Source: a virus (lineage: Duplodnaviria > Heunggongvirae > Uroviricota > Caudoviricetes). Taken from it: a stretch of 64,000 nt of DNA. The stretch's first letter is position 1, and each line of letters opens with the position of its first letter. The notes beneath the pieces were generated by a model. The model saw only the letters and a program-made list of their open reading frames with translations, was not told the origin of the DNA and ran no database searches. Of the stretch, positions 1 to 56,158 are shown one piece after another. The translations under genes were made by a program, and so were the position numbers. The DNA is taken from the IMG/VR virus record IMGVR_UViG_3300044796_000394; one strand, written 5' to 3'.

Positions 1-73
1 AAACCAGACATACTCGGTCGCATCAATCGGTTTAGAGAAGGTGTTTTTTCCACCCTATAAAGGCAAGATTAAT

Positions 74-1354: not shown

Positions 1355-1357
1355 CTT

Positions 1358-1711
1358 ATGGTTGATTTTAGAAGCACTAGGAATTATCATTTGAATGGTC
1401 GCAACGTAATACCGTGTAGTGGTTTTTTCTTTCAATTGATCCAATCTCAACAAGTTGGCTCATTTGTAGTCGCTCAAATCAAGTACACAACATGTACTAC
1501 TTTTGACGGCAATAAAATCATCGTGTTTGATGGAATGAAAATTGACGATTTGATGAAGTTAAAAACCATCGATCCTCATTTTTCCGAAGAAGTAAAAAAT
1601 TGCCATCCAATAGCAAGGTTCATGCCAACGCCTGAAGGATGGAATCACGCAATAAAGTTTTGCGAAATGTTAAGTGTTGAACAGTCGGCTTGTCCACAAT
1701 ATTCTTTTTGA
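1358..1711 (+). CDS. hypothetical protein
   Basis: 117-aa ORF starting 3 nt after gdhA stop. Confidence 0.6.
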   Translation: MVDFRSTRNYHLNGRNVIPCSGFFFQLIQSQQVGSFVVAQIKYTTCTTFDGNKIIVFDGMKIDDLMKLKTIDPHFSEEVKNCHPIARFMPTPEGWNHAIKFCEMLSVEQSACPQYSF

Positions 1712-1720
1712 GGTTTTTCT

Positions 1721-1909
1721 ATGAAGTCTTTTCTTATTGGTTTGGTAATTTTGGCTATTGGTTTCGGTGGAGGCTTATATGCTTCCAAGTTTGATTGTGT
1801 TCGCTCATGTCCTTGTCTCGGCAAAGTTTGCGGTGCCAAGGAGTGCCCATGCCCATGTCCACCTGCTAAGGGTGATGTTGCCGGTGACTGCTGCGTTCCA
1901 AAGAAGTAA
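1721..1909 (+). CDS. small Cys-rich protein with N-terminal signal/TM helix
   Basis: GAGG SD; hydrophobic N-terminus followed by 9 Cys in ~40 aa. Confidence 0.65.
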   Translation: MKSFLIGLVILAIGFGGGLYASKFDCVRSCPCLGKVCGAKECPCPCPPAKGDVAGDCCVPKK

Positions 1910-1910
1910 A

Positions 1911-1953
1911 TTGAATCCAATTAAGCAAGCCTTATAATGAGGCTTGCTTAATT
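1911..1953 (+). promoter_or_regulatory. sigma70-like promoter overlapped by a 14-bp inverted repeat
   Basis: TTGAAT-16nt-TATAAT; AATTAAGCAAGCCT/AGGCTTGCTTAATT arms enclose the -10 box; no U tract. Confidence 0.5.
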
Positions 1954-1975
1954 CACTAAACCCTTTCAGGAGATC

Positions 1976-2254
1976 ATGATGGCTCTTACGCTAATTCAAG
2001 TTAAGGATGTCTGCCAAGCACAAGCGAGCAATAAGTCTCCGTGGTCTTGGGGAACGCCAAATACAACTTGTAAATACCTTACCGGCGAAATAGTTGGCAA
2101 ACAGTACAAACAACTCTGTATGAAGTTGGCGCCGGGTGTGGTTGAAAAGAAGAGAAAAGATGGTATGCTGGCTCATGACTTTGATAAGTTGCCCGATAAC
2201 TGTCCCGGCTACTCATACCTGAAGTATAAGGATCAAGGATACGACGTTCCTTAA
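1976..2254 (+). CDS. hypothetical protein (4 Cys)
   Basis: AGGAG SD, 92-aa ORF. Confidence 0.7.
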   Translation: MMALTLIQVKDVCQAQASNKSPWSWGTPNTTCKYLTGEIVGKQYKQLCMKLAPGVVEKKRKDGMLAHDFDKLPDNCPGYSYLKYKDQGYDVP

Positions 2255-2271
2255 CTTCTCTTCTTGAAAGA

Positions 2272-2481
2272 ATGAAAATGAGCAAGACATCCGAAAGCAT
2301 CGCAATGGCTGAGTATGAAAAATACAAAGCCCAAATGACGAGTTTGGAAACACAGGGCGACACCACAAGCAAGAATGCCATCTCAATTCGAACGATGCTC
2401 TTTCAATTGTGGAATAAGTTAACGCCAGAGCAACAAAGAGAAATAGCAAAGAAGTACATTCCTTCCGGAAGTTTTTCATAA
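2272..2481 (+). CDS. hypothetical protein
   Basis: Packed co-directional 69-aa ORF. Confidence 0.55.
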   Translation: MKMSKTSESIAMAEYEKYKAQMTSLETQGDTTSKNAISIRTMLFQLWNKLTPEQQREIAKKYIPSGSFS

Positions 2482-2491
2482 AAGGTAAGCC

Positions 2492-5329: not shown

Positions 5330-5367
5330 GTTAGACTATCTGACCGATACAAATAAAGGGCGATTTT

Positions 5368-6804
5368 ATGAAAAAGGCAGAATTAGTAGAAGCAGGCATT
5401 CCCGTGAATTGCCATGCTGCTGCCATTAAGGTCATTCAAGATGGCTTCCGGCACAAAATCTTCCCTTCCAACAAAGGGGCACGGGAAGCTTTAACGAGAG
5501 TGGCCGCTGCGCCTGAAATGCACCTCGGCGCAGACGACTTCTACCGAGAATTGGCAAGCACCATCATTGCCACCCGCAAACAGCACGTTGAAGACGAAGC
5601 TCTTTACGCCAAAAACAGCATTGGTACAAGCCAATCGTTTGCCTCTTGGGGTGCCGACATTGAACAAGGTGCCATTGATCAAATGCAAAATGCGGTATCC
5701 CTGCCAGTTTCAGTGGTCGGCGCCATGATGCCCGATGCCCACAGTGGGTACGGTTTGCCCGTAGGCGGTGTTCTGGCCACATACGACAGCATCGTTCCTT
5801 ATGCGGTAGGCGTCGATATTGGTTGCCGGATGCGTTTTACGTTCACCGATATCGATCCATCACTCCTCAAGGATTCTCACGACAAGAAGGCGACTCCGCT
5901 CTGTAAAGCCTTGCGTGAAGGAACGGTTTTTGGCGTCGGCGGTCAACACGAAATTAAGATGAACCATCCAGTCATGGACAAGGATTGGAACATCACGGCT
6001 GTCACAAAAGCCGCCAAAGATAAGGCATGGCGGCAGTTGGGAACCAGCGGTTCCGGCAATCACTTCGCCGAATGGGGCATTGTGACGTTAACTCAAAAAG
6101 AATTCGGTTTAGAGCCGGGGAAATACGTCGCTCTCATGACTCACAGCGGCTCCCGTGGTTCGGGTTCTGATGTTTGTAGTTACTATACCGACGTTGCCGC
6201 TTCCAAGCTGCCAAAGGCTTATGAGAAATTCGGCAAAATGAAATTGGCGTGGTTGCCAATGGCTTCCGAAGCTGGCCAAGAGTATTGGGCAGCTATGAAC
6301 CTTATGGGTGATTATGCCGCTGCCAATCACTACGTCATTCACGAATTGGTTCTCAAGAATATGGGAGCAACGGCCCTTAAAGTGATTGAGAACCACCACA
6401 ATTTCGCATGGAAAGAAGATTACAAGGGAACCGAAGTGTACGTTCACCGTAAAGGTGCTACACCTGCCGGAAAGGGCGTACTGGGTATTATCCCCGGTAG
6501 TATGGCCACTTCCGCATTCGTCGTACGAGGCAAGGGCAATCCTGAAAGCTTGATGTCGGCTTCTCACGGTGCCGGGCGGGCAATGAGCCGCACCAAAGCT
6601 AAGGAACAGTTTAACTGGAGCACATGGAAGAGCCAAATCCAAAATGCCGGTGTACGACTATTGAGCGGCGGGATTGATGAGGTTCCCGGTGCTTACAAAG
6701 ACATTCACAAAGTCATGGCTCAACAAACCGACTTGATTGATGTTGTGGCAGAATTCATGCCCAAAATCGTCCTCATGGGTCAAGATGGTCGGAGCGAAGA
6801 TTAA
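5368..6804 (+). CDS. rtcB: RtcB-family RNA 3'-phosphate/5'-OH ligase
   Basis: PDAH, GVDIGC, GSGNHF, HSGSRG, HHNF, HRKGA, SHGAGR motifs. Confidence 0.95.
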   Translation: MKKAELVEAGIPVNCHAAAIKVIQDGFRHKIFPSNKGAREALTRVAAAPEMHLGADDFYRELASTIIATRKQHVEDEALYAKNSIGTSQSFASWGADIEQGAIDQMQNAVSLPVSVVGAMMPDAHSGYGLPVGGVLATYDSIVPYAVGVDIGCRMRFTFTDIDPSLLKDSHDKKATPLCKALREGTVFGVGGQHEIKMNHPVMDKDWNITAVTKAAKDKAWRQLGTSGSGNHFAEWGIVTLTQKEFGLEPGKYVALMTHSGSRGSGSDVCSYYTDVAASKLPKAYEKFGKMKLAWLPMASEAGQEYWAAMNLMGDYAAANHYVIHELVLKNMGATALKVIENHHNFAWKEDYKGTEVYVHRKGATPAGKGVLGIIPGSMATSAFVVRGKGNPESLMSASHGAGRAMSRTKAKEQFNWSTWKSQIQNAGVRLLSGGIDEVPGAYKDIHKVMAQQTDLIDVVAEFMPKIVLMGQDGRSED

Positions 6805-7214
6805 TGGACGCAACACAACAACAACGGTTAACTGAATTGCGAAATAGGCAACGAATATGCCTTATGAGTCGCACCGTTCTTTCGTCGGACGAAAAGACGG
6901 AGTTGAAGAATTTATCACAACAAGAAAAACGGGAAATGATTGAATTTGTTGGGCAAGAGCTTTACGAGTGGGCAACAGAAATGTTATTTCGTCATGACCC
7001 TATTGGGTTGGGCGGTATGGATTGTCCAAAAAACGAATATTCCTTGGAAGCAAGATGTATTATGTCTCGTGTCAAAAATATGACATCGGTTGATAAGATA
7101 CACGAAATTGTTTGGAATGTATTTCTGCAAATGTTTAGTGAACATTGTGCTGGTGAAAAAGAAAAATATCTCCCAATTGCTCAAGATATTCTCAAAAAGT
7201 TAACGGATGCATAG
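6804..7214 (+). CDS. hypothetical protein
   Basis: Start overlaps rtcB stop (TAATG); HDPIGL...EY motif. Confidence 0.65.
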   Translation: MDATQQQRLTELRNRQRICLMSRTVLSSDEKTELKNLSQQEKREMIEFVGQELYEWATEMLFRHDPIGLGGMDCPKNEYSLEARCIMSRVKNMTSVDKIHEIVWNVFLQMFSEHCAGEKEKYLPIAQDILKKLTDA

Positions 7215-7216
7215 CC

Positions 7217-7462
7217 ATGAGCGAAAAAGGCATTTCAAGAGTCATCATCGGCCTATTTGTGCTGTTTGGCGGCATCATTGTATGTTATTTTGGTGCTATG
7301 CAACTTGGGCCAATGCAAGCGAAACCTGAACACCTACAAGCTCTCAAAGCAAATAAGATGGGCGATTTCAGCGACAGTTATGGCGGCTCACGATACAAGC
7401 TTTGCCGTGTTGATTTGCCCGATGGATCTTGGTACGTAGTCGCTATACCCACTACTAGGTGA
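7217..7462 (+). CDS. hypothetical membrane protein
   Basis: One N-terminal TM segment; packed in operon. Confidence 0.6.
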   Translation: MSEKGISRVIIGLFVLFGGIIVCYFGAMQLGPMQAKPEHLQALKANKMGDFSDSYGGSRYKLCRVDLPDGSWYVVAIPTTR

Positions 7463-7466
7463 GTCC

Positions 7467-8231
7467 ATGAAAGTTGCGAAATGGTTTACGAAACATTATA
7501 CACTCGCACAAACCTTTGACACGGGCATTCAGTATGCTTTTTTGTCAGCGGATAACGAACAGTGTTTCCCATTGGTGACTTGTAAGGAATTTTTGATTGA
7601 CGCCGTTCATGCGTTAATTCATAACAAGCCTACGTTCCTCTATGGGTTTACGTACAGTATAGCCAACAACCCGCCGATCTGTCTTGACCCTTGTCGTCTA
7701 CTTCTTTCTACCAATAGCAAAAAAAACAAAGCCACATTTTACGAAGATGCGGTTCGACTGAAATCCTTTTTAAATCTCCTTGAACAAAAAATGGGATGCG
7801 AAAACGAGTCAGAAATTGAAGTGGTAGAAAATCATCCCCCTCTACCTTACATCAAACAGCCTATGGTTTTGTTAACCAGTCCGGCCTTGTGGATGCTTTC
7901 ACCGCCAATGCTTTCGTTATTCGCCCTACTCATTCGGGTGGGGTTCTACTACAACGGCAAAGAAACAGCATGGGGTCACTGTCAAAAAGTCCGTGACAAA
8001 AAGATCATCACCGATCATCCACGAAACGGCGAGTATCTTAAGTCGGCTTGGAAAACCATAATGGATTTGGTGGAATCGGGCGGTATGTGCCGGTTCAAAC
8101 CAGATATGAAAGATAATTGGCCACTATTCGCTCAACAATGGCAGTTGCACGAATGGTCAGGAATTGTATCGCTGGCCAAGGGAACAACGAAAAATCTCTG
8201 TCCACAATGGTATCCCAAATCTACATCTTGA
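7467..8231 (+). CDS. hypothetical protein
   Basis: 254-aa ORF with AGGTGAG SD. Confidence 0.7.
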   Translation: MKVAKWFTKHYTLAQTFDTGIQYAFLSADNEQCFPLVTCKEFLIDAVHALIHNKPTFLYGFTYSIANNPPICLDPCRLLLSTNSKKNKATFYEDAVRLKSFLNLLEQKMGCENESEIEVVENHPPLPYIKQPMVLLTSPALWMLSPPMLSLFALLIRVGFYYNGKETAWGHCQKVRDKKIITDHPRNGEYLKSAWKTIMDLVESGGMCRFKPDMKDNWPLFAQQWQLHEWSGIVSLAKGTTKNLCPQWYPKSTS

Positions 8232-8240
8232 GGGACTACA

Positions 8241-10232
8241 ATGAACAGTCAATTTGGTTTTGTCTGCGTTGGAGCAGGTTCGTCACGTGTTTCAGTCGGC
8301 AACCCCGTCTATAACGCCGATGAAACCATTGCTCTGATACGCAGAATGAAAGATTGTGATATTGTGGTTCTCCAAGAGTTGGGGATCACTGGCTACACTT
8401 GTCGCAATCTTTTCAGTCAAGAGCTTCTTATTAACTCTGCTGCACAGCAGGTTCAACGTGTCGCCGAAGCAACCAATTGGGTCAAAAATGGGATTCCCCC
8501 TCAATTGGTCTTTGTAGGCTGTCCCATATACGTTAACAACAATCTGTACAATTGCGCCGTAGCGATCCAAGACGGCGAAGTGATCGGTATCGTCCCGAAG
8601 CAGCACCTTCCCAATTACAAGGAATTTGAAGAAACTCGTTGGTTTCAACCCGGTTCTTCTAAGTTGCCACAATCCATTAAGTGGCAAGGCGAAACCGTCC
8701 CATTTGGCACTGATCTCCTATTTGACTTCGGCAACAATGTTGTCGTCGGTGTGGAAATTTGTGAAGATTTGTGGATGCCTATTCCGCCTAGTTCCCATCA
8801 GGCACAAGCGGGCGCAACCATTTTAGTTAACCTTTCGGCGTCCAATGAAACGGTTGCCAAAGCAGACTACCGTCGTGATTTGGTAGTTGGACAATCTGGC
8901 CGATGTATTGCCGCATACGTTTATTCGTCTGCCGGGCCTTCCGAATCGACAACAGACTTGATTTTCGGCGGTCACTGTATGATTGCCGAAAATGGGAGCC
9001 TCTTGAAACAGTCCAAGAGAGTTGGCGATGGATCAAAGCTGTCGTTCAATTCGCACTTCATCATGGGTGATGTTGATGTGCAAAAGATTATGTTTGAGAG
9101 ACGGCAAACTACAAGCTATGGCCAAGAAGTCAGGTTGAACTACCGCAGAATTAACGTTCGCTCACGACAAAAAACCAAAACATTACATCGCACCATTGAC
9201 AGTATGCCATTTGTTCCCAAAGACTCTGGTAAACTCAATGAACGATGTACGGAAATTTTCGCCTATCAAGTGGCCGGTCTTGCTTGTCGTCTCAACAGAA
9301 TAGGACGCTACAATCCTGTGATCGGTGTTTCGGGTGGTTTAGACTCCACTTTGGCGTTGCTTGTGTTAGCGAAAACGTTCGAAGCTCTTGGTATTGATCC
9401 CGGCAAGATCCAAGGAATCACGATGCCCGGTTTCGGTACCACCAGCCGGACGCTTGACAACGCTAAAAAGCTGATGGATCAATTGAAAATCAGCCAAACG
9501 ACCATTGACGTTTGTCATTTGAGTTTGGAAACATTCCGTCAGATGGGACACAAACCTTTCGGACTTTCGCCTTATCTGGAAATGGATAAATTTAAAGAAG
9601 CACTCAAAGGTTTAAAGAAACAAGATCGTCATGATCTTGTTTTTGAGAACGTTCAAGCGAGAGTGCGAACCCACTTCCTAATGAATCAGGGCTTCGTCGT
9701 TGGCACTGGCGACTTAACCGAAGCAGCGTTGGGTTGGTGCACGTTCAATGCTGACCATATGAGTATGTACAACCCCAATTGCTCTGTACCAAAGACATTG
9801 GTCAAGTTCCTAGTCAAATGGGCCGCTGAAAACGAATTCGACGGCAAAACACAAAAAACCCTGCTCGATATTGTTGATACGGAAATTTCGCCCGAATTGT
9901 TGCCGGTGGACAATGAGGGGAAAGCTCAATCTACCCAAGATACGTTGGGGGCTTTTGAGTTACATGACTTTTTCCTATTCAACATTATTCGGAATGGATT
10001 TTCACCGGATAAAGTGTTATTCTTAGCGGAATATGCCTTTGACGGTGCTTACAAAAAAGAAGTTATTCACAAGACGTTGAAGTTATTTTATGAAAAATTC
10101 TTCCGCAATCAGTTCAAACGAAATTGCGTTCCCGATGGTGTTAAAGTTGGATCTGTGAGTTTGTCGCCCCGTGGTGATTGGCGAATGTCTTCCGACTCCG
10201 ATCCCACTCTTTGGCTTAAGGAGCTACAGTAA
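8241..10232 (+). CDS. nadE: glutamine-dependent NAD+ synthetase
   Basis: N-terminal nitrilase domain with E-K-C triad (QELG, PKQHLPNY, EICEDLW); synthetase domain GVSGGLDSTLAL, ENVQAR, SLSPRGDWRM. Confidence 0.95.
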   Translation: MNSQFGFVCVGAGSSRVSVGNPVYNADETIALIRRMKDCDIVVLQELGITGYTCRNLFSQELLINSAAQQVQRVAEATNWVKNGIPPQLVFVGCPIYVNNNLYNCAVAIQDGEVIGIVPKQHLPNYKEFEETRWFQPGSSKLPQSIKWQGETVPFGTDLLFDFGNNVVVGVEICEDLWMPIPPSSHQAQAGATILVNLSASNETVAKADYRRDLVVGQSGRCIAAYVYSSAGPSESTTDLIFGGHCMIAENGSLLKQSKRVGDGSKLSFNSHFIMGDVDVQKIMFERRQTTSYGQEVRLNYRRINVRSRQKTKTLHRTIDSMPFVPKDSGKLNERCTEIFAYQVAGLACRLNRIGRYNPVIGVSGGLDSTLALLVLAKTFEALGIDPGKIQGITMPGFGTTSRTLDNAKKLMDQLKISQTTIDVCHLSLETFRQMGHKPFGLSPYLEMDKFKEALKGLKKQDRHDLVFENVQARVRTHFLMNQGFVVGTGDLTEAALGWCTFNADHMSMYNPNCSVPKTLVKFLVKWAAENEFDGKTQKTLLDIVDTEISPELLPVDNEGKAQSTQDTLGAFELHDFFLFNIIRNGFSPDKVLFLAEYAFDGAYKKEVIHKTLKLFYEKFFRNQFKRNCVPDGVKVGSVSLSPRGDWRMSSDSDPTLWLKELQ

Positions 10233-12742: not shown

Positions 12743-12873
12743 GGTATCCGGTGTGAGCATGGGACTCACTCCTGTAGGTATTACTGGACTTGGGATAGAC
12801 CCAAGCTGCTCGAAAGGCGGAAGACCGGTGCAACTCCGGAAATGACAAAAGGTTCGATTCCTTTCGGATGCTA
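12743..12873 (+). ncRNA. tRNA-like structured RNA (acceptor stem, D-like arm, four internal hairpins, T arm)
   Basis: GGTATCCG/CGGATGCT terminal stem plus A; GTGAG/CTCAC hairpin; AAAGG-TTCGATT-CCTTT T arm; intergenic within the tRNA array. Confidence 0.75.
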
Positions 12874-12876
12874 CTT

Positions 12877-13191: not shown

Positions 13192-13265
13192 GTCGGGGTA
13201 GCCCAACGGCAGGAGGCGACACACTCAAAATGTGTACAGTGTGGGTTCGAATCCCACCCTCGATA
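13192..13265 (+). tRNA. tRNA-Leu(CAA) with short variable region
   Basis: GTCGGGG/CCTCGAT acceptor, ACACA-CTCAAAA-TGTGT, 5-nt variable ACAGT, GTGGG-TTCGAAT-CCCAC, A73. Confidence 0.9.
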
Positions 13266-13941: not shown

Positions 13942-14017
13942 GCCTTCGTAATGGCCCCGGTTTCTACCCGGAAGGTGCATAACTGGAATTATACAGGTTC
14001 GACTCCTGTCGAGGGTG
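13942..14017 (+). tRNA. rearranged tRNA-Arg(UCU)-like RNA lacking a canonical D arm
   Basis: GCCTTCG/CGAGGGT acceptor, G73, CCGG-TTTCTAC-CCGG anticodon arm only 8 nt after the acceptor strand, ACAGG-TTCGACT-CCTGT T arm. Confidence 0.7.
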
Positions 14018-14036
14018 CTGGTTTCAATTAACGGAG

Positions 14037-24562: not shown

Positions 24563-26020
24563 ATGTCTGATAAGATGCGAATACAGCATTTGGGTCATGC
24601 GGGCTTCATAGTTAACGCTGCCGAAAAGAAGATCCTCATCGATCCTTTCTTTCATGGTGCATTTTTAGGCTCTTGGTTTCCATACCCCGATAACAGTCAA
24701 TTTGAACAAGAATTACTTGATCAGCAATTTGACTATCTCTATATCTCGCATACGCACGAAGATCACTGTGATGTTAAGTTTCTTGAAAAATTCAAACGTA
24801 ATATCAAAGTGATTTGCCCAAATTATCGTTCAAGAGCATTGGAATTGAAGTTAATTTCTCTCGGCTATACAGACTTGATCTTGTTGAAGCACAAGGAGTC
24901 GTATACCGATAAATTGACAGGATTTAAGATGGCTATGTATCTTGATACAAGTCATAAAGAAGATAGTGGCATTCTATTTGATGACAACGAAACGACCTTT
25001 CTTAACCTGAATGATTGCAATACTACACTCGCCGACTTGCCGACTGATGTTACGGTATTAGCAGCACAGTATTCAGGTGCCATGTGGTATCCTAATGCTT
25101 ATTTTTACAATAAACAAACCGAGGAATCCAAAACACAAACTGTCATTTTTGAGTTGATGGAAACGTTGTATCGCAAAATTGCACACATTAACCCCAAACA
25201 TTACATTCCATGTGCAGGGCCACCTTGTTTTCTCGATCCCCTTCTCAATAAGTTTAACGATAGAGAGAAAACAATCTTCCCAACATGGGATATAGTTCAA
25301 AATCGCTTTTCTCAAAGGTACCCCAATCTTCAAGTTGCACCCATGCTTGCGGGGGATATTTTTGTTGATAACCACATAGAGCCGGGCGATTTTGATTTGC
25401 CAACCAAAATTTTACCGTACGCTCAAAGTCGCATTCATGAATGGTCAATTAGCAACAAAGGTGCTTCTGTCAAAACGATAGATGTCGTTGACTATTTTGA
25501 CAAGCTACGCAAAAATAATATCCATATTTTTGATGAGAACATCACCTTCCGCCTTAGTTGTGGCATTAATGGTTGGACAATCAAATTAGGCAAAAATACT
25601 TTCATTGTCAAGGAAGGTAGACATGCTGAAAAAGGCTACGAGTTCTTTGTGCCACCTTGGATAATGAGGGATATTCTTGATGGGAAAACAGGTTGGGAGG
25701 AGGCACTCTTGTCTATGCGAGTGTCCATAGAGAGAAATCCTGATGTTTATGATGTTAAATTAATGGGCTTGTTGCGATACGGCAACCAACCAAAACAAAC
25801 CCTACAAATGGTCAAAGACACCAAATCAAATACAATGATTACCCGTGACGGTGTTACGTTTCAACAATTTTGTCCTCATGCGGGTGAGGATTTAAGTAAC
25901 GCCGAAATCAAGGATGGTATCATTACCTGTCCAAGACATCACTGGAAATGGGATGTGAAAACTGGTGAATGTCTAAAAGGTGGGACATTAAAACTTAAGT
26001 GTGGTGAATCTTGTAAATAA
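24563..26020 (+). CDS. metallo-beta-lactamase-fold protein with C-terminal Rieske [2Fe-2S] domain (CMP-Neu5Ac hydroxylase-related)
   Basis: LGHAG, IDPF, SHTHEDH, NLNDC, YIPCAGP; Rieske CPHAG...CPRHHW. Confidence 0.85.
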   Translation: MSDKMRIQHLGHAGFIVNAAEKKILIDPFFHGAFLGSWFPYPDNSQFEQELLDQQFDYLYISHTHEDHCDVKFLEKFKRNIKVICPNYRSRALELKLISLGYTDLILLKHKESYTDKLTGFKMAMYLDTSHKEDSGILFDDNETTFLNLNDCNTTLADLPTDVTVLAAQYSGAMWYPNAYFYNKQTEESKTQTVIFELMETLYRKIAHINPKHYIPCAGPPCFLDPLLNKFNDREKTIFPTWDIVQNRFSQRYPNLQVAPMLAGDIFVDNHIEPGDFDLPTKILPYAQSRIHEWSISNKGASVKTIDVVDYFDKLRKNNIHIFDENITFRLSCGINGWTIKLGKNTFIVKEGRHAEKGYEFFVPPWIMRDILDGKTGWEEALLSMRVSIERNPDVYDVKLMGLLRYGNQPKQTLQMVKDTKSNTMITRDGVTFQQFCPHAGEDLSNAEIKDGIITCPRHHWKWDVKTGECLKGGTLKLKCGESCK

Positions 26021-26052
26021 AAAAAAGCCGCCCATATGGGCGGCTTTTTTTT
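26021..26052. terminator. bidirectional intrinsic terminator
   Basis: A6-GCCGCCC/GGGCGGC-T8 between convergent genes. Confidence 0.88.
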
Positions 26053-26054
26053 AT

Positions 26055-28544
26055 TTACATACCAGAACTTGAAGAGCTAGAACTCATACTTGAAGAACTA
26101 GAACTAGAACTAGAAGTCGGACAACTTGATTCACAAACTCTTGAACCATCCAATCCAGAAGGATAAGGGCCACTATTAACTGTCCATTTATTAGTATCAG
26201 GAGCTCCAGCGAAACTCTTACATCTAGTATTAGAACCGACTGGCCAGAGTCCATCAAGTGACGTTGGACTTTCAAATCCCGAACCCCCAAATTTGGGTGT
26301 TACACAATACCAACCAACTGGCGTACAAGCCGCACAACAAGCAGCAAAAGCCGCATCATCGGTGCCGTAATTTCCATCATAAACAATCCATAGTTCCCAT
26401 TTTGGCGTTTTCGAGAACTTTTTAACTGCCTTCTCACCGCCAGAAACAGGTTTAACGCAATACCAACCTTCGCCACTTGGACCACTTGAACTTGAAGACG
26501 AAGAGGGTGGTACACACCCTGTAACGTAAGGAGCAATCTTGGCATATGCTGCTGAGATTTGGTAATAAGCGGCTTGAATTTGCTTGAAAATACCTTGAAG
26601 AGTAGCCAAATATTGGCCAATAACAGGATTACAAGATTCTTCACAATTAACGCTTGGCAAAGCTGTTAACATATCTTCCAATCCCGTTTTCAAACTTTCA
26701 TCATACATTCTGCGAAGTTTATCTACTTCTAAAACCTGATTGAATAAAGCCGTCCACCCATTACAGCATACCTCATTGTAATTTGTGATACAGTAATATT
26801 CCTTATTATCAAGACACTTAAGAAGTAGTTTGCTAATGGCACTAGATGTAACAGAATAATCCAATTTCATGTTCTTAACTGATTCAATCATGTCTTTGAC
26901 ACTACTTTGACAAGCCAATTTTATAGCAGGATTATTTTTACAATTACAATAAGCAATTTTTGCTGCAATGAATTTGGCATATCCTGAACAATCTGAATAA
27001 TCTTTAGGATCTATTGTTTTGCCACGGGCACATGCTTCATTGGCAATAGCACTTAAAGCTGCATCCAATGCAGCAAAGTAAGCAGCATTGACTTTCTTTT
27101 GTTCCGCTGTTAATTCGTATAATCTCTCAGGCTGACCATATTCATCACATGGCAAAGAATAAGTAGGCATATTTCCAGCCTGTGAAACAGCGACTCTTTG
27201 TTCTGCTGAAGCACCACAATTATCAAACAGTAGAGCCTTACAACGATCAACTGCGGCTTCATCCATAGCTCTTCGCATCAAATTACCGAAATATTGAGCC
27301 GATGATATAAAGACTTCGATGCCAACTGCTACGGCAAGTTGAATGCCAAGGTTTTTCAATATAGCTTTACCCAATCCCCTAGTCCATGCATAACCCGGTG
27401 GAGGTGGCACTGGTGAAATTGGTGGTCTAACAATGGTTTCAGGTACTCTAGGTGTAGTAGGAACAATACTTGGACGAGTCGTTCCCGGTCCCCAAGTCAC
27501 TTGTGGTGTTCCTGTTACGCCGGGTGTTGTACCAGCTGGCGTCGGTACTATTGCGCCCGGTCGTGGAGCTGGTCGCCCCGGCGCAGGAATGGGTTGCCAT
27601 CCTGAATTTGGTCCGGTACCAGTACCCGGTGGACTTATTACTATACGACTCCCATCTGGCATTATTCGAATTACAGATCCGTCCTCTAATGCTACAATCC
27701 CACTTACGGCACCTGAAAGCGGTGGTGGAACATTTGGATTATAAGTTGATGGCGTTACGTCAGCGAAGTTGGATGGACGTACAGGAACCGAACCCGGTGG
27801 CGGTGTCGGCGTAGGAGATGGTGCTGGTACGCCGGGTTGTGGTGTCGACGCAGATGGTGTCGACGGGACAGGGCACAGATTGTTAAGTGCTTGATTTTGC
27901 GCTAAAAGTGCTTGATCGGCAGCAATTGAAGAATTGTTGAGTGCCTGTATCGCAGCTATTGCTTCATCTTGAGTTAAAATTCCTGATGCCAACAAGGATT
28001 GTATTGTAAGCAAATCCGTCGCCCCCGCACCTGCAGCCCCTGTAGGAGGTACCGATGGTCCATATGGATCAACAGGATTAAATGGTGCTAGTGGGGGTCC
28101 AACCGGTCCAGGTCCAGGTGGATTATCAGGGGGGGGGACAAATGGTCCAACACCAAATGGATTGTATCCTTGTGGTATTCCTGCTGCTGGGCCATATTCA
28201 ATAGTTCCGCCCCCCGGTAAGGCTTCTGCTGGACCTACTGGAACAAAGGCTCCGGGTGGTACGAAATTACGATTTTGAGAATACCAACCTTGCGGAATGC
28301 CATAATTAGGCCCATAGATGCCCGGCCCCGGCCTCATTCCACCGTCTGGCACTGTTTGTCGGCCCGGCCCATTTGTTCCAAGCCTTTCACGAGGTGTAGA
28401 AGGGTAGTATCCATTGGGTGGTTCAACTTGCCAAGGCTGAAGAGGCCCAATGAAACCGTAATCGCCGGGTCGTGGAACGCCGGGGGGTGTTGGTTCTGGT
28501 GGAGAAGGTACTCCCGGTGTTGGTACTCTTGGTGTATCGGCCAT
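26055..28544 (-). CDS. large Pro/Gly-rich, Cys-rich protein with poly-Ser linkers
   Basis: ~380-aa Pro-rich N-terminus, a hydrophobic helix, Cys-rich helical region, two GWYCV modules, poly-Ser; AAGGA SD before ATG 28544. Confidence 0.75.
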   Translation of the reverse strand: MADTPRVPTPGVPSPPEPTPPGVPRPGDYGFIGPLQPWQVEPPNGYYPSTPRERLGTNGPGRQTVPDGGMRPGPGIYGPNYGIPQGWYSQNRNFVPPGAFVPVGPAEALPGGGTIEYGPAAGIPQGYNPFGVGPFVPPPDNPPGPGPVGPPLAPFNPVDPYGPSVPPTGAAGAGATDLLTIQSLLASGILTQDEAIAAIQALNNSSIAADQALLAQNQALNNLCPVPSTPSASTPQPGVPAPSPTPTPPPGSVPVRPSNFADVTPSTYNPNVPPPLSGAVSGIVALEDGSVIRIMPDGSRIVISPPGTGTGPNSGWQPIPAPGRPAPRPGAIVPTPAGTTPGVTGTPQVTWGPGTTRPSIVPTTPRVPETIVRPPISPVPPPPGYAWTRGLGKAILKNLGIQLAVAVGIEVFISSAQYFGNLMRRAMDEAAVDRCKALLFDNCGASAEQRVAVSQAGNMPTYSLPCDEYGQPERLYELTAEQKKVNAAYFAALDAALSAIANEACARGKTIDPKDYSDCSGYAKFIAAKIAYCNCKNNPAIKLACQSSVKDMIESVKNMKLDYSVTSSAISKLLLKCLDNKEYYCITNYNEVCCNGWTALFNQVLEVDKLRRMYDESLKTGLEDMLTALPSVNCEESCNPVIGQYLATLQGIFKQIQAAYYQISAAYAKIAPYVTGCVPPSSSSSSSGPSGEGWYCVKPVSGGEKAVKKFSKTPKWELWIVYDGNYGTDDAAFAACCAACTPVGWYCVTPKFGGSGFESPTSLDGLWPVGSNTRCKSFAGAPDTNKWTVNSGPYPSGLDGSRVCESSCPTSSSSSSSSSMSSSSSSSGM

Positions 28545-28675: not shown

Positions 28676-30529
28676 ATGACAGTTAATAGTATTACTGTAG
28701 GAACAACAACAACCGGTAATTCGGGCACAAGTGCTCACGTTACTAACTCTGGAACCGCATCCGATGTAGTTCTTGATTTTGTTATCCCACGTGGAAATAC
28801 GGGCGCCAAAGGTGCTCAAGGTGTTCGTGGTATTCAAGGTGTACAAGGCGTTCAAGGTGCCATTGGCGTTCAAGGGCCACAAGGCGACGTTGGCGAGCAA
28901 GGCATTCAGGGCGTTAAAGGTGACAAGGGCGACAAAGGTGATGTTGGTGCCCAAGGCATTCAGGGTGTTAAAGGTGACAAGGGTGATACCGGCGATGTTG
29001 GTGCACAAGGTATTCAAGGCGTTAAAGGTGATCAAGGAGACGTTGGGCCAAAGGGTGATGTTGGTGCTCAAGGCATCCAAGGTATCCAAGGCGTTAAAGG
29101 CGACAAAGGCGACAAAGGCGACAAAGGCGACATTGGCCCAAAGGGTGACCAAGGTGATGCCACGTTAATGTACTATGTGGATCGTGCTCCTGTTTCAGCA
29201 GGTGTATACGATGAAGAATTTGATGGTACTAATGATGTTCTTCCAGCTAACTGGTCACTTAACACTGTTTCAGGCTTGGAATTGTTTGTGGCACCAATTG
29301 TGTGGCGGATGAAGGCCGCTAACAAGATTTGGACGGATACAAGCCGAACCACACTTGCCAATGATGGCGACTTGATTGGTGCGTTTCAATGTACCTACTC
29401 TGGCATCATCTTCACTTTGGTGAATGGTGCTGGTGCAACGTTAGTGGATGAAGGTGACGGCAATTGGTCTGTGGTTCATAACGCCGATGGATGTTACCAA
29501 GCTAGTTCATTCAGTGCTGGAGACGACTTTACAGTTGCTTTCCGATTAAAAGTACCAGCAGGATACTCTGGTTTGTTCGATGGAGCACCATCCAATGGTA
29601 ACGTATTTCGGAACAATGCAAGTGCGTTCGGGGATGTGAGTAACTGGGAACTCCATAATCATAACCCTGATGCTTCTTTCGGTGCGATTTCAACAGAAAC
29701 GTGGCTCAATCATACCATCGTTGCTCACCACGGTGCTGATGTAGGTCGCAGCCTTGATCTCTACCAAGATGGTAGTTTCTTAGGCAATACGCTTGGCTCA
29801 GGCGCAACCAGCATCGCTTGGACTACTCCAAGTATCGGTGGCTTGAATGGCACTGCGAGCTTCGTTGGTCGGTGGTCTGGATGTGCCATTCAGAATACGG
29901 CAGCTGATTTGGGTCGTGTTGCTGAAATTGAAACATTCTTAAACTCAACTGATCCAGCTGCCTTCGGCACCGTGTCCGATCTTGATACCATATCTGATCT
30001 CGACACAGTTTATGTTAACAGTCGGTGGCCTTCTTGGTTTACTCTTGAAGGAACTGGAAATAGCGATTACGTACTCACTCGTTCAAACTTTACACCGGGA
30101 TCTGGTGATTTCGGTATTTGGTTCAAAGTTTGCGGTGGACCTCATACAAACACTGAATCCAAGAATTTCAGAGTTTATGTATCCAATGACGATCATAGCG
30201 AAGCTCGTGCATGGGAACTTTATGCTTCCAGCAATGGCCCTAGCATAAGATCACTTAGCGTTATTGGTAATGCTGAAAGCTTGTGGAGCGGCGCAGTTTC
30301 CGTTCCAGCTACGACAGTGGTATACGGTGGTCTCACAAGATCAGCCGATAACAACTGGAGTGTTTGGTATTCTACAAATGGCATGTGTTGGGAACGACAC
30401 GCTGTCGCATCACACAGTTTTGATGTGAGCAAAATTGAATTTCATATTAGCACCAATAGTTGCCCTTCCATGATGGGTATCGATTGGTTGCGTTCTCGTA
30501 CCGACTTGGCTTGGCCTCGTTATTCATAA
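28676..30529 (+). CDS. collagen-like fibre protein with C-terminal LamG/ConA-like beta-sandwich domains
   Basis: [19 protein letters not shown] followed by ~40 G-X-Y triplets; beta-rich C-terminus ([15 protein letters not shown]); AGGAGG SD. Confidence 0.85.
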
Positions 30530-30543
30530 CGATCAAATTAACC

Positions 30544-30573
30544 AAAAAAGCCGCCCAATTGGGCGGCTTTTTT
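30544..30573. terminator. intrinsic terminator
   Basis: A6-GCCGCCC/GGGCGGC-T6. Confidence 0.85.
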
Positions 30574-30619
30574 GGTTACATACTAGAACTAGAGATAGTT
30601 ATAAAATAGTCGTTAAAAT

Positions 30620-30650
30620 AAAAAAAGCCATCCCGAAGGATGGCTTTTTT
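30620..30650 (-). terminator. intrinsic terminator after major capsid gene
   Basis: A7-GCCATCC-CGAA-GGATGGC-T6; reads as a UUCG tetraloop on the minus strand. Confidence 0.88.
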
Positions 30651-30665
30651 ATTAAGTTTTAACAC

Positions 30666-39003: not shown

Positions 39004-39661
39004 TATCGTAGTCGTTATCAACAGCCCATTGTGCTAAATCATGAAGGGCTTTGATGTTTCTCTGAATTCTTTCCTTGTCCACACCGCCGAAATGTACATC
39101 GGCCTTCCCCGGCTTTTTATCAACCTTGGCAGGCTCAACAGCCTTATCAATCTGGAAATCATTAATGGATTGAATCTTCCACAACAATTCTCTTGATTGA
39201 AGTGACTGTACCCCTCGCATACCCATTAATTGCAACACCAAATCAGCCATGTCGTTGCTCATGTTAACTTCCGGTGCCCGATTCTGACTATCCGGAATTT
39301 CTACATCAATACGATAAACGACATCGGGATGGAACGTTCCGCTTTGTTCCTTGCGGAATTTCCCATGTTTAACACCCATTTCCCCAATGGCATAAACAGC
39401 ACCATTGACAATTTTAGCCCACTCTGTTTCAGGCACGCCAGTAGGGTACAGGTTCATAGTACCTTTTTTCAAATGAGTATTCAAACCATCAATGGTAAAA
39501 ATACCTTCGGGATTGGTAGCTTTTTGACTCAAAGGTGCGTGTTGGTGAAGCCAAGCACGCACCTTATAGCCAAGGTCGGCGATGTCCTTAACATCGCTTG
39601 CCTCATATCCCTCTGGTTCAAACGTTACGCTTTCCGTTAACCACTTTTTGAAATTATTCAC
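38987..39661 (-). CDS. putative internal head protein
   Basis: Leader (M)NNFKKWLTE; overlaps portal stop. Confidence 0.65.
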   Translation of the reverse strand: MNNFKKWLTESVTFEPEGYEASDVKDIADLGYKVRAWLHQHAPLSQKATNPEGIFTIDGLNTHLKKGTMNLYPTGVPETEWAKIVNGAVYAIGEMGVKHGKFRKEQSGTFHPDVVYRIDVEIPDSQNRAPEVNMSNDMADLVLQLMGMRGVQSLQSRELLWKIQSINDFQIDKAVEPAKVDKKPGKADVHFGGVDKERIQRNIKALHDLAQWAVDNDYDTIAMS

Positions 39662-42194
39662 CTTCTACCTCGCTGGCATCAATTTCTTCGTCGTCAATTC
39701 CTTGCGACAAATCGTAAATTTCCAAATCGTACATCTTCAACTCATCGTCAGTTGGATCAGGCAATTCTACTACTTCAGGCTTCTCTGGTTGACCGTACGT
39801 GTCTTGTGCTTCGGCTCCAGGCTGTTGATCGCCCCCCGCATCCATTTCGCCACCTGTAGGCGGTTGATCTGGAGGCGGTTGCTGCCCGCTCATATCATTT
39901 GGTACTGGCCCGCCTGCTTGTGATCCCAATTCATTGCCCGGTGCTTGCGGCATAGCCACACCCAACAATTGAGGATTTTGACTCATTACTTGCAGCTTCA
40001 GTTCTTGCAGCTTCTGAATCATTGAACGAGCGACTTTTTCCTTCGCCTTTTCCAACGGTTCGTGCATAACATCCGTCAACAAGTCCAAGTCAGAATAAAC
40101 CATCGTACCCTTCAAGGTGGAAAGACGGTTAACACGGGCATCCTTGATTTCGTTTTCTGAGATTTCACGGTAGTGAGATGGAGCAGTCATCTTGATCTGC
40201 AAATCATCAAACAAATCACTTGGATAGCCACGCAATTGTAAGTGTCGAATAGCAACCTGAACCAGTCCACTCGCAACGTTTCTTTGTAGCCTCTCAACCA
40301 ATCTCGCAAACTTAACATCAACACTGGATAACGTCACTTTGGTGATTGAAGGATCGTCTTGTGCCATGTAGTTTCTTGGGAAACACATTGAGATAAACAA
40401 CTTGTTTCTGAAGTACAAGGCATCGTCAATTTCGCCTAAGTTTTGGGCACCGGGCAATGTTTCAACCCGTGTATTAGAATTCGGACGCAATGGAATCCAG
40501 AAGTCTTCATCGGCTGTCGGTGGCGTATTTCTTTCATCAACTGGCCCTGCACCCGACTGACCACCCTTAGAAGTAAATACCTTTTTCTTACGGAATTGAT
40601 CTTTCAATCGTTCCATGAAAGCTTCAGTTTTGAACGATGATAATTGACCAACATCGATGTAAAAGACCCGTCTTTCCGGCGCACGTGAAAGACGATAGAT
40701 TAACATACTATCTTCCATCAACTTCAATTGGTGCGCTGGGCCACGTGCTGCTTCAATCAAACTCACTCCATAAGGGAAAAACGTCTTGCGATTTCCGCCA
40801 ATACTAAAGTGTACGATAGATTGAGGTTGGAATCTGATAGCCGTTGCCTGCATCAATTCCGCTTCTGTAGCCTTCGTTACGTCAACCTTAGCTAAACTCT
40901 GATAATCAGGCCCATCTTTGGCTTGTTGGAATTCAATAGTCTTGCCTTTGATCGTATCAATACGATAAATACTTTCAGGTGGAAGTACTTGTACTTTCAA
41001 AATACCTAACTTGGGTTCATCGGAATCAATGACGAGTTCAATGAAGTGATCGCCATAAAGGAACAAGTCCCGGCACCAGCTCCAAATATTTTCGTCAAGG
41101 TTAATCATCGTCGGATGAAAAAAGAGGAATTCCAATTCTTCTTTGATGTCCGGATTTTTGCAGATGATATCGAGCATGTGCCCGTTCTCACCGATCTGGC
41201 AATTATGAAATACGCCGATGTCAGTACAGAAATTTTCGTGCTGATCTACGGAAAGATCGTAAACGTCCTCTTCGGCACCTTCCCAAGTAGCCAATACGGT
41301 TACGTAATCGGGAATCTCGCCTAAATGCTGGCATTCACGATAGCAAAAACCTTCGTATCTCAATCTTTCGGAAAGGGTATCCCAATCCTTACCGAAGAAC
41401 TCAGCGACTTGTTTGGTTTTCAATCCACCGGCAATGGATCTAACAATCTTGTATAGATTTTCTTTTTGTGTTTCGCCGGTACGCCATTCTTCAATGAAAT
41501 CACGTTCCGTCATCCAGCCTTTGTTATGGGTGAAAATACGTGGGAATTGTTTGCGTTTGGCACAAGCAAAAGTTTTTTCTGGCCGTTTGCGGTAGAAAGG
41601 CATCATACGATCACCCTTCTTTAACTGCCCCGCTTCAATCCATTCACCATTTCTCAACAAAACCCTATGGTCAGCAGTACAGCGGAATTGCGCACCGTCT
41701 GAAACGGTTACAACAACAGTTTTAGACTTCTTGACAATGCGTGGATGATGTGCCCAACCGAGTGTGTAATCTTGCTTGCCAAAATCGTAACAATATACGA
41801 GGAACTTTTCCCCTGTCATCTTGCGGGCAGCGAGGTCTTTAATTTCAATAAAGCCGAATGGAGTAGCAACTTTGGTATGTCCAGCAACGCAGGCTTCGTC
41901 AGCGAAAATCGTAATAGCATTTTCAATTTCGGGTACTGTTCTTAATCTTTCGTATTCTTTATATCGGCTTTGACGGTTTGTTACGCTGGATAAATCGATG
42001 AAGTCATTGCTGTCACGAAGCCTTACAACACCCCTACTACCACCAAAATATTCACCACTTTGACGAATGTCTTGAATGGCGTCTGGAACGGTAACGCCCG
42101 CACCTTCAATATCGTGAGTTACTTCACGCCGACGGATGGGATCAAGCTCACCTTGAAACTGCCATACCTTGTACAAATCACTCCAAAACGGCAT
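39654..42194 (-). CDS. gp20: portal protein, T4 gp20-like, intein-containing
   Basis: PEIENAI, QLKLMEDSMLIYRLSRAPERRVFYIDVG, EDFWIP, TLPGAQNLGEIDD. Confidence 0.95.
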   Translation of the reverse strand: MPFWSDLYKVWQFQGELDPIRRREVTHDIEGAGVTVPDAIQDIRQSGEYFGGSRGVVRLRDSNDFIDLSSVTNRQSRYKEYERLRTVPEIENAITIFADEACVAGHTKVATPFGFIEIKDLAARKMTGEKFLVYCYDFGKQDYTLGWAHHPRIVKKSKTVVVTVSDGAQFRCTADHRVLLRNGEWIEAGQLKKGDRMMPFYRKRPEKTFACAKRKQFPRIFTHNKGWMTERDFIEEWRTGETQKENLYKIVRSIAGGLKTKQVAEFFGKDWDTLSERLRYEGFCYRECQHLGEIPDYVTVLATWEGAEEDVYDLSVDQHENFCTDIGVFHNCQIGENGHMLDIICKNPDIKEELEFLFFHPTMINLDENIWSWCRDLFLYGDHFIELVIDSDEPKLGILKVQVLPPESIYRIDTIKGKTIEFQQAKDGPDYQSLAKVDVTKATEAELMQATAIRFQPQSIVHFSIGGNRKTFFPYGVSLIEAARGPAHQLKLMEDSMLIYRLSRAPERRVFYIDVGQLSSFKTEAFMERLKDQFRKKKVFTSKGGQSGAGPVDERNTPPTADEDFWIPLRPNSNTRVETLPGAQNLGEIDDALYFRNKLFISMCFPRNYMAQDDPSITKVTLSSVDVKFARLVERLQRNVASGLVQVAIRHLQLRGYPSDLFDDLQIKMTAPSHYREISENEIKDARVNRLSTLKGTMVYSDLDLLTDVMHEPLEKAKEKVARSMIQKLQELKLQVMSQNPQLLGVAMPQAPGNELGSQAGGPVPNDMSGQQPPPDQPPTGGEMDAGGDQQPGAEAQDTYGQPEKPEVVELPDPTDDELKMYDLEIYDLSQGIDDEEIDASEVEGE
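41202..41891 (-). mobile_element. intein (230 aa) in portal protein
   Basis: ADEA|CVAGHTKV block A, CTADHRVL block B, VYDLSV...GVFHN|C terminal blocks. Confidence 0.92.
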
Positions 42195-54982: not shown

Positions 54983-55237
54983 ATGAACACACTTAAAGAA
55001 ATGCGAGAAAAAATTCTCGATGAAATGGAGAATATTCCACGACGACCACAAGAAACTCAAAGTCCATTAAGAGAACTTTATTGGTCAAAGATGATGCACA
55101 ATCGTGGAAAAAATGGGGCCAATCTGTCTCATTTTGAAATTTTCAAAGAATGCTTAACTGAATTACAAGCACGGTATCCAAACTTAAATTTTAAATACAA
55201 TACAGACTTTTTTAACCATCCGGGGAATAGATATTAA
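54983..55237 (+). CDS. hypothetical protein
   Basis: GAGGAG SD. Confidence 0.65.
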   Translation: MNTLKEMREKILDEMENIPRRPQETQSPLRELYWSKMMHNRGKNGANLSHFEIFKECLTELQARYPNLNFKYNTDFFNHPGNRY

Positions 55238-55275
55238 AAGAAGCAAGCCTTCAATTGAAGGCTTGCCAAATGATA

Positions 55276-55387
55276 GGAAAGTTGGCTGAGAGGTTTAAGG
55301 CTCTCGACTGAAAATCGAGCGATCCAACGGGGTGTGTCTGATAACTTGCCCCCAGTAGATTCGTGGGTTCGAATCCCGCACTTTCCG
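55276..55387 (+). tRNA. tRNA with Ser-type body, GAA (Phe) anticodon and 43-nt variable arm
   Basis: GGAAAGT/ACTTTCC acceptor, G73, D arm GCTGAGAGGTTTAAGGC, CTCGA-CTGAAAA-TCGAG, GTGGG-TTCGAAT-CCCGC. Confidence 0.85.
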
Positions 55388-55609
55388 TTTACATATTATA
55401 TATTAGCGATATTTGAATTTTATTTTTCAAAATATTAATCTATTTAAATCACAACTTCGGTAGGTGCCCAATCCAATTTCGGCAGTTCTGTTTCCAATAA
55501 ACGTTGAGCGAGTTTTTCAATTCGCTCAACTTCTTCTGTTTTGTTTTTGACTTTTTTTGATTCCAACCATATTTCCTTGATCATCAATCTTTCGTATTCG
55601 TCAAGCATA

Positions 55610-56158
55610 TCATCTCTCGATAAAGTTCGGATTGTAGAGATATTTTTTCTGCAATTTGTTATAAACGTATTTGTAAACCTTGGGAGCATCTGCCGTACTG
55701 CCTTGCCATACATCTTGATGGAATGGACTTAATCTATGACCCAGAATTTCTGCTTGCGGAACTTCGCCTTTGGCGGCATGTGCATTGGCATACAAATCCG
55801 GTGACGAAGGACGAGATATTGGTTTAGGGGGCGTATAAACAGGTCGTTGTGCCGGTTGGGGGACTCTGTTACTCTTGCTGTTGGATACAGTGGTTTTGAG
55901 ATACTGATCAATACCATCAAGCATAATGGCAGAAACGGCTTGTGGTGTTAATTGCCCTCGTCCTGATTTTTCTTTGATTGTAGCTTGAACCATATTCCAC
56001 CAAGAATCACCCAATGTAGGACTGGCTAATACCTTATTGACCTTCTCTTTATCATGCGGACTCATTATTTGATGAGCCTGCATGGCCAAGTTTTCAACAC
56101 CTTGATTATCTTCGTGTAAAGTAATAGATTTCTTAAAGTAAAATTCTTGCCATTTCAT
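55610..56158 (-). CDS. putative internal head protein
   Basis: Leader MKWQEFYF...LHE; TAAATA 7 nt upstream. Confidence 0.6.
   Translation of the reverse strand: MKWQEFYFKKSITLHEDNQGVENLAMQAHQIMSPHDKEKVNKVLASPTLGDSWWNMVQATIKEKSGRGQLTPQAVSAIMLDGIDQYLKTTVSNSKSNRVPQPAQRPVYTPPKPISRPSSPDLYANAHAAKGEVPQAEILGHRLSPFHQDVWQGSTADAPKVYKYVYNKLQKKYLYNPNFIER

Follow-up and report, generated by a model that had tools for sequence, protein, structure and literature searches.

What is a phage doing with a tRNA that joins the body of a serine tRNA to the anticodon of phenylalanine? The question is raised by one gene in a 64,000-nucleotide stretch of viral DNA (IMG/VR record IMGVR_UViG_3300044796_000394), hereafter the window. 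A first-pass annotation, made from the sequence alone, had described a clean cloverleaf with a Phe-reading loop CU-GAA-AA and a 43-nt variable region. Both the anatomy and the coordinates were confirmed, and the gene contains the following features:

55276..55387, plus strand: serine-body tRNA gene with anticodon GAA and G73; 7/5 cloverleaf, same letters in two runs
55310..55312, plus strand: anticodon GAA in a canonical 7-nt loop with A37–A38; would read UUC/UUU
55320..55362, plus strand: 43-nt variable region, with one unpaired base, 4-bp basal stem, internal loop, upper stem and apical loop
55325..55357, plus strand: internal loop CAAC (55325–55328) opposite CAGUA (55353–55357), recurring in relatives
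55338..55344, plus strand: apical loop with a YUNR motif (CUGA), seen in the sequence

All stems are paired. The acceptor stem (55276–55282 with 55380–55386) forms seven of seven pairs, among them G1–C72, G2–C71 and A3–U70, and G73 follows at 55387. The D arm (55285–55301) has a Ser-type stem of 3 bp and GG in its loop, five of five pairs form in both the anticodon stem and the T stem (T arm at 55363–55379), and the variable region is about twice as long as a bacterial tRNA-Ser arm. CCA is not encoded. The Rfam tRNA model (RF00005) gave the gene 50 bits against a gathering cut-off of 29 (E value 1e-7). ARAGORN did not call it at default settings; a version with a 17-nt intron appeared only at a lowered threshold, which also yielded many implausible calls. 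A bulge-helix-bulge intron was rejected, as two 3-nt bulges around a 4-bp helix are absent by eye from sequence and fold. The minimum-energy fold of the whole gene differs from the cloverleaf (z −1.10). The gene span reads identically in contigs from two runs (X1 and X2), each belonging to a different study, which makes a single-base assembly error unlikely, the match being one of contigs, not raw reads, and of limited independence (both are 2025 peat runs, X1 possibly the source). A misread GGA had been envisaged at 55310–55312; contigs of both runs have GAA there.

According to PMC9976931 (accessible part), serine identity depends on the variable arm, on G73 and on the top acceptor pairs and disregards the anticodon, and Phe identity requires A73 as well as the anticodon and, in E. 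coli, also U20 and U59; this agrees with the rules that the first-pass annotation had stated. The window gene has the serine determinants G1–C72, G2–C71, G73 and a long arm. From the Phe set, G34–A35–A36 and U20 are present and the discriminator A73 and U59 are absent, with G73 and A59 in their places. At the base of the arm, one unpaired base on the 5′ side and none before C48 make a serine-type geometry, which is found, among the matches listed, in 22 of 23 canonical Ser tRNAs and in 43 of 45 members of the family described below; unpaired bases before C48 are lacking in only 32 of 77 phage cognate long-arm tRNAs (also among the matches listed). The anatomy thereby supports the proposed pairing of a probable serine identity with a Phe anticodon. 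The basal stem of the arm is 4 bp long and gives way to the internal loop, and stems of at most 4 bp occur in 3 of the 23 canonical Ser tRNAs. A bulge in the V stem abolished serylation of a 9/3 allo-tRNA, according to the accessible text of PMC7590224, and this precedent and the 4-bp stem together count against charging by SerRS. In tRNA-Tyr, a V loop carrying a Spinach aptamer reduced charging only 2.7-fold and still permitted translation (PMC5397188, accessible part), an activity that PMC7590224, where available, rates as marginal.

The window comes from a large T4-like phage with genes for a major capsid protein, a portal protein with an intein and a tail sheath stabiliser, as well as an IleRS-like synthetase, RtcB and NAD synthetase. 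As a minor point, the intein and the genes for the last three and for a glutamate dehydrogenase-like protein (judged by eye) lie at 41–10232 and 39654–42194. The runs containing the sequence are labelled peat metagenome. Seven of the 120 listed homologues of the NAD synthetase name an organism, in all seven cases one of the Planctomycetota, and a planctomycete host appears likely. Conserved columns at TTT/TTC codons have Phe in 44 of 53 cases and Ser in none, which refutes, for phage genes, the earlier idea of a programmed Phe-to-Ser recoding. Phe codons make up 4.05% of the 10,620 phage codons, so that a Phe-to-Ser toxin would hit the phage's proteins too, and this counts against a toxin reading. 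In RNA run X2, shallow coverage extended over 30 of 30 bins of 19.5 kb and did not increase at the gene; the contigs of this RNA library may be DNA, and they give no evidence of tRNA expression. Run X3 contains a small share only. For the ordinary tRNA-Phe in five host genomes, exact matches were found in three of the five, with controls as frequent overall in this noisy comparison.

Folding reproduced the arm structure proposed before, GATC/GATT, an internal loop and GGGGTG/TGCCCC. Its energy is unexceptional (no more stable than shuffles, z −0.72), and support for the structure therefore comes from relatives. An AGUA internal loop is common to the window gene, L007, L012, L038 and L070, with flanks that have changed and remain paired; among the matches listed, it occurs in 5 of 33 large-arm members, against a mean of 0.07 and a maximum of 1 in 500 shuffles. 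The CAAC/CAGUA loop presumably resembles the loop E or sarcin–ricin bulged-G motif. YUNR is present in 19 of 30 apical loops of at least 5 nt in the family (among the matches listed), compared with 8 expected, and is no commoner than chance in controls (2 of 8 and 4 of 18). The extra RNA domain suspected in the arm is thus real, consisting of a shared AGUA internal loop and a YUNR tip. YUNR loops nucleate antisense pairing in hok/Sok, as stated in the accessible part of PMC6562991. Separately, the seven bases at 55338–55344 resemble an Ile(GAU) anticodon loop, and the phage has the IleRS-like synthetase (2492–5329) and a tRNA-Ile(UAU); the likeness may be chance, since the tips of relatives differ.

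Relatives were sought with an anticodon-blind pattern (Ser-type D arm, CU-NNN-AA loop and long arm), which matched four viral and at least 80 metagenome loci, and from these eukaryote-type intron tRNA-Ser, assembly duplications, Tyr tRNAs, duplicates and broken-stem genes were removed. Among the matches listed, 32 unique intact metagenome genes have arms of at least 27 nt; 30 have a non-serine anticodon (UAU in 10, GUU in 5, CAA in 5, CCU in 2 and eight singles) and two a serine one. In the same matches, position 36 is A or U in 12 of 13 distinct anticodons (P value 0.002) and A34 is found in only 1 of the 32 giant-arm genes, counts that are not independent because the sequences are related. 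An A/U-36 bias and a rare A34 are an established pattern of decoding tRNAs. A neutral anticodon would give about three Ser in 32, similar to the ratio seen. A pattern scan for GAA gave six viral and 35 genome matches, which sorted into 6 intact genes, 22 loci of Ser type whose stems are damaged and 13 sequences that form no cloverleaf; the intact Ser-body GAA genes besides the window copy are L001, L092, L102, L104, L110 and L124.

The pooled family has 45 members including the window gene (among the matches listed), of which 40 were aligned and five with damaged acceptors omitted. Two-sided changes were seen at 19 of 24 stem pairs and 97% of cells pair (40 aligned sequences among the matches listed), pairing that is partly built in by the intact-stem filter. 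CCA is encoded in 14 of the 45 (among the matches listed). The body of the window gene is closest, among these matches, to the CAA members L060 (87%) and L038 (86%), canonical Ser reaching at most 78%, and L070 (anticodon GCA) is 73% identical over the whole length. As the nearest bodies carry CAA, GCA or UAU anticodons (among the matches listed), anticodons switch within the family, and the alternative raised earlier, drift from a phage Ser-GGA, is unlikely and unsupported. The conservation looked for across relatives was found for the stems, which covary, and not for GAA itself. Among viral sequences no exact match to the 5′ part of the gene was found, and BLAST against plasmids and phages yielded only partial 5′ matches, in 1 and 165 records respectively, with coverage below 80% throughout; the 5′ half matches phage tRNA-Ser genes at 83 to 84%. 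The 401 genomes of the phylum of G002 contained four pattern matches, three ordinary Ser tRNAs and L110. A transposase lies within a flank of at most 1.5 kb in 18 of 44 members (among the matches listed; nine seeds came from these loci) against 0 of 12 Ser controls. Pfam identified IS1595 domains in 13 of the adjacent transposases and IS1 in one, with one more below the cut-off, and other members adjoin HicA or Abi-like genes. Swappable non-serine anticodons are thus carried by a mobile family of serine-body tRNAs.

Beside the GAA relatives a second kind of gene is predicted. At L001, L104, L110 and L125, three from planctomycete genomes and one viral, a promoter-like site lies just after the tRNA (10 of 12 positions matching in three of them) and is followed by a predicted RNA of 59 to 67 nt made of a 5′ tail, a small hairpin and a terminator, the predicted genes sitting 40 to 110 nt after the tRNA. 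The tail has 15 unpaired nt in three of the four predicted folds and is the reverse complement of the arm of its own tRNA over 13, 16, 13 and 11 nt, respectively, with a different sequence at each locus. In swapped pairs the longest complements are 9 to 11 nt for L001, L104 and L110, the length for L125 having been read from its sequence, and at L104 the complement extends to 33 nt, over the anticodon arm. Cognate duplexes were computed at −22.5 to −30.9 kcal/mol and non-cognate ones at −5.6 to −16.8 kcal/mol; cofolding of whole RNAs predicted similar binding of the L110 RNA to the L125 tRNA and to its own. L102 has a 17-nt complement copy on the opposite strand and L092 a short one. No complement copy was found near the tRNA of L124, nor a clear trans partner beside any giant-arm member examined, and Rfam has no family for the small antisense genes at the eight loci searched. 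In a scan for tRNAs with a downstream promoter, only L001 was recovered as a partner locus among such layouts, and six other tRNAs so arranged have complements of 5 to 6 nt against 14. The null of a G–U-tolerant complement test was spoiled by tRNAs in the flanks, and only its match lengths were used. An inverted duplication could create such copies; the shared promoter, tail and terminator point to a function. Taken together, the small RNAs of the GAA relatives suggest a missense tRNA that is toxic and an antisense RNA that serves as its antitoxin; in these relatives the arm is the predicted target of the antisense RNA, a role unforeseen by the first-pass annotation.

Around the window gene the arrangement is different in detail, and the relevant features are:

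54983..55237, plus strand: 84-aa ORF upstream of the tRNA, with an ambiguous codon score
55243..55266, minus strand: perfect 24-bp palindrome with a minus-strand T run, predicted intrinsic terminator (fold z −5.5)
55395..55400, minus strand: weak candidate −10 box TATAAT, directed toward the tRNA, 7 nt beyond the discriminator and with no good −35 (chance 15% within an 87.5% A+T stretch)
55444..55713, minus strand: convergent ORF, coding-like from 55608 down
55503..55530, plus strand: predicted terminator of the tRNA transcript, inside the convergent ORF

No homologue was found for the 84-aa ORF and no promoter of its own for the tRNA, and the two are likely co-transcribed. If transcription of the convergent ORF read through, its mRNA would cover the tRNA in antisense and stop at the 55242 terminator, and with terminators predicted on both strands the predicted transcripts overlap across the whole tRNA. 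In trans, the best antisense match to the arm is 8 nt within 1.5 kb, a length reached by 71% of unrelated flanks, and the best complement in the 64 kb is 10 nt; no trans partner was found there. The palindrome behind which the gene had been placed is indeed perfect and ends 9 nt before the tRNA, and it is not special to the tRNA, as a sister stem lies at 1925–1947. Because of this recurrence the idea that palindrome and tRNA arrived together was dropped; we regard the palindrome as a phage-native terminator, which may simply end convergent genes. A hairpin after an A run precedes 10 of 45 members (among the matches listed), 0 of 22 Ser controls and 1 of 76 phage cognates (P value 4e-5, Fisher test), and an opposite-strand −10 box near the 3′ end is unspecific, occurring in 7 of 45 members (among the matches listed), 0 of 22 Ser controls and 17 of 76 phage cognates. 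The tRNA is absent from 80 of 80 syntenic phage loci around a 175-aa neighbour, and the three closest phages have unrelated DNA in its slot, which indicates a recent insertion; the phage probably acquired the gene at a variable position that follows a conserved late gene. Its isolation from the tRNA array was borne out, the nearest other tRNA found being about 38 kb away.

We favor, at somewhat less than an even chance, the reading that the gene encodes a serine-charged tRNA with a Phe anticodon that acts as a missense RNA toxin under antisense control. Read-through of the plus-strand operon would give a precursor ending at 55530, which host RNase P and the CCA-adding enzyme would mature. SerRS, indifferent to the anticodon, would recognise the arm base, G73 and the top acceptor pairs and charge the tRNA, and the seryl tRNA would compete with tRNA-Phe at UUU/UUC, inserting Ser and spoiling proteins. 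The enlarged arm would be a handle at which an antisense RNA unfolds the SerRS determinant, and in the window phage this part would fall to the minus-strand RNA that overlaps the tRNA and ends at 55242. The missing trans partner, the weak cis promoter and the phage-native terminator count against antisense control of the window copy, and the strongest new evidence comes from the relatives, not from the window copy. A broader form is only tentatively put forward and, taken as a whole, is doubtful: mobile elements would carry an undescribed all-RNA toxin–antitoxin or abortive-infection system, in which translation is poisoned by a Ser-charged tRNA whose anticodon may be any frequent non-serine one and the arm evolved as a sequence-specific handle for a labile antisense RNA, and a planctomycete jumbo phage would have captured one copy, timed it by convergent transcription and turned it into a weapon for attacking the host or co-infecting phages.

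Other readings place the function elsewhere or deny it. The RNA may have the shape of a tRNA and not decode, serving as a scaffold or decoy whose arm binds protein or RNA or absorbs a tRNA nuclease or synthetase. The short basal stem and internal loop may block SerRS, the anticodon is swapped freely with the AGUA arm motif conserved, and the inactive allo-tRNA-UAU variants, which occur beside transposons and toxin–antitoxin genes, offer a precedent (PMC5389517, accessible part). Nevertheless, we consider this unlikely, as A/U-36 in 12 of 13 anticodons (among the matches listed) and the rarity of A34 resemble decoding constraints, CCA is often encoded, the serine-type arm base is retained and no RNA target for the arm was found in the window. 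The absence of the gene from 80 related phage loci, the unrelated DNA in the slot of the three closest phages, the native hairpin and the failure to find an own promoter or antisense partner would all fit a passenger, a once-active mobile tRNA now silent or neutral that came by chance to lie between two phage terminators. This is quite improbable, since the stems are fully paired at only 73% identity to the closest relative over its length, indicating selection on structure until recently at least, and since the gene lies in sense orientation behind a long run of plus-strand genes with a terminator downstream.

A slim chance is left to a cognate tRNA-Phe on a long-armed body, charged with Phe and escaping host tRNA nucleases. 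Long-armed cognate tRNAs are common in phages (77 unique among the matches listed) and the main E. coli Phe determinants G34–A35–A36 and U20 are present (PMC9976931, accessible part), but phage cognates mostly keep their discriminator and frequently have a tilted arm, 45 of the 77 (among the matches listed) having unpaired bases before C48, and the window gene, with G73 and A59 and with acceptor and arm base both of serine type, lies outside the tRNA array and has nearest bodies with other anticodons. Hardly any weight remains for an assembly error or recent drift of a tRNA-Ser(GGA), or for programmed recoding of phage genes, readings that are largely refuted: GAA is one base from GGA and phage tRNA-Ser 5′ halves do match at 83 to 84%, yet a second run has the same letters, six other intact Ser-body GAA genes exist, the nearest bodies are non-Ser family members at 86 to 87% against at most 78% for canonical Ser (among the matches listed), and conserved columns at Phe codons are never Ser.

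The missense toxin that we favor would have parallels in known systems. Some allo-tRNAs of serine identity that carry Leu anticodons have been shown to insert Ser and to be lethal to E. coli; six allo-tRNA-UAU variants were inactive as suppressors, and irregular 7/5 tRNAs in peat polycistrons are mentioned (Mukai et al. 2017; accessible parts of PMC5389517). As far as these parts and those of the review PMC7609411 go, allo-tRNAs and the family described here share a long arm, G73, diverse non-serine anticodons with UAU the commonest in both, soil or peat occurrence and neighboring transposon and toxin–antitoxin genes. Allo-tRNAs have, however, 8/4 or 9/3 stems and a Sec-like long D stem with a tetraloop, whereas the window gene has 7 + 5 pairs and a Ser D arm; its eighth acceptor pair would be U–C, and it is not an allo-tRNA. 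The family also differs in arms of up to 49 nt with internal loops and in the cognate antisense genes of the GAA relatives. The type VIII system SdsR/RyeA (PMC8610362, accessible part) resembles the prediction for the window in that an RNA toxin is masked by an antisense RNA from the opposite strand, but SdsR is an mRNA-pairing small RNA and the presumed toxin here a mischarged tRNA. As in hok/Sok (PMC6562991, accessible part), a single-stranded antisense region would pair with a YUNR loop at L001, L104, L110 and L125 (the last without YUNR); Hok is a protein toxin whose mRNA Sok blocks, whereas no toxin protein is involved here. Bacterial class II tRNA-Ser shares the acceptor pairs, D arm, G73 and arm-base geometry with the window gene, which differs in its non-serine anticodon and in a roughly doubled arm broken after 4 bp.

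In the literature, as far as the accessible parts extend, we found neither enlarged-arm serine-body tRNAs of the 7/5 type nor antisense partners of theirs described, and the terms "antisense" and "IS1595" are absent from the PMC5389517 supplement; the figures of that paper may show members. Standard tRNA finders miss the window gene or label such genes by their anticodon, and the family is easily overlooked. The natural missense tRNAs known so far are mainly allo-tRNAs with 8/4 or 9/3 stems, which lie beside transposons and toxin genes. To the question of why they occur there, the 7/5 family with cognate antisense RNAs offers a testable answer, with the tRNA as toxin and the synthetase handle as off switch, and the four natural cognate pairs permit a direct swap test. 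If true, it would provide a natural gauge of the serine-arm size tolerated by synthetase and ribosome, and an RNA switch for suppressor tRNAs.

Several further observations concern tRNA-like genes and their surroundings. At 12743–12874 (plus strand) the window contains a tRNA-like RNA with a 7- to 8-bp acceptor, a long D-like stem, a T arm and several extra hairpins, which Rfam misses and ARAGORN reports as Thr with an intron only at a lowered threshold. A 74-nt tRNA at 13192–13265 (plus strand) has a Leu (CAA) anticodon and a short variable loop, unusual for Leu, and the tRNA cluster ends with a tRNA-like element at 13943–14019 (plus strand) that has an acceptor and T arm and no clear D arm. 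Near-identical perfect palindromes of 48 and 40 bp, in the shape of bidirectional terminators, lie at 26012–26059 and 30539–30578, the second overlapped by a weak and probably spurious Rfam STnc430 match (30525–30657). Ser-body GAA or GAU RNAs with intact arms and an unpaired acceptor end are found at L002–L006, L093, L108, L112–L114, L120, L340, L345, L361, L375 and L387, with L003 lying antisense between terminase-like and portal-like prophage ORFs. The family members L017, L023, L028, L029, L038, L046, L052 and L060 adjoin uncharacterised proteins of 135 to 250 aa, possible partners with an N terminus that looks rich in coiled coils.

Two viral scans for non-Ser anticodons gave mostly cognate Cys and Asn tRNAs (among the matches listed), and L210–L442 include many phage tRNAs for Cys, Asn, Lys and Trp in which an arm of 11 to 23 nt has been added and the discriminator is cognate (among the matches listed). 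Such added-arm tRNAs are like the window gene in being phage-borne and in combining a class II body with the anticodon of a class I amino acid, and unlike it in their shorter arms, their mostly cognate discriminators and their frequent location in arrays. Anticodons for stop codons (UCA, opal; UUA, ochre) occur at L007:1490–1586 (minus strand), which is inside a phage tRNA cluster, L009:1494–1603 (plus strand) and L036, making these members candidate natural serine nonsense suppressors. At L031, a Ser(UGA) tRNA with a 31-nt arm (1494–1593) lies directly behind a seryl-tRNA synthetase gene (189–1460), an arrangement suggesting that SerRS can accept such long arms.
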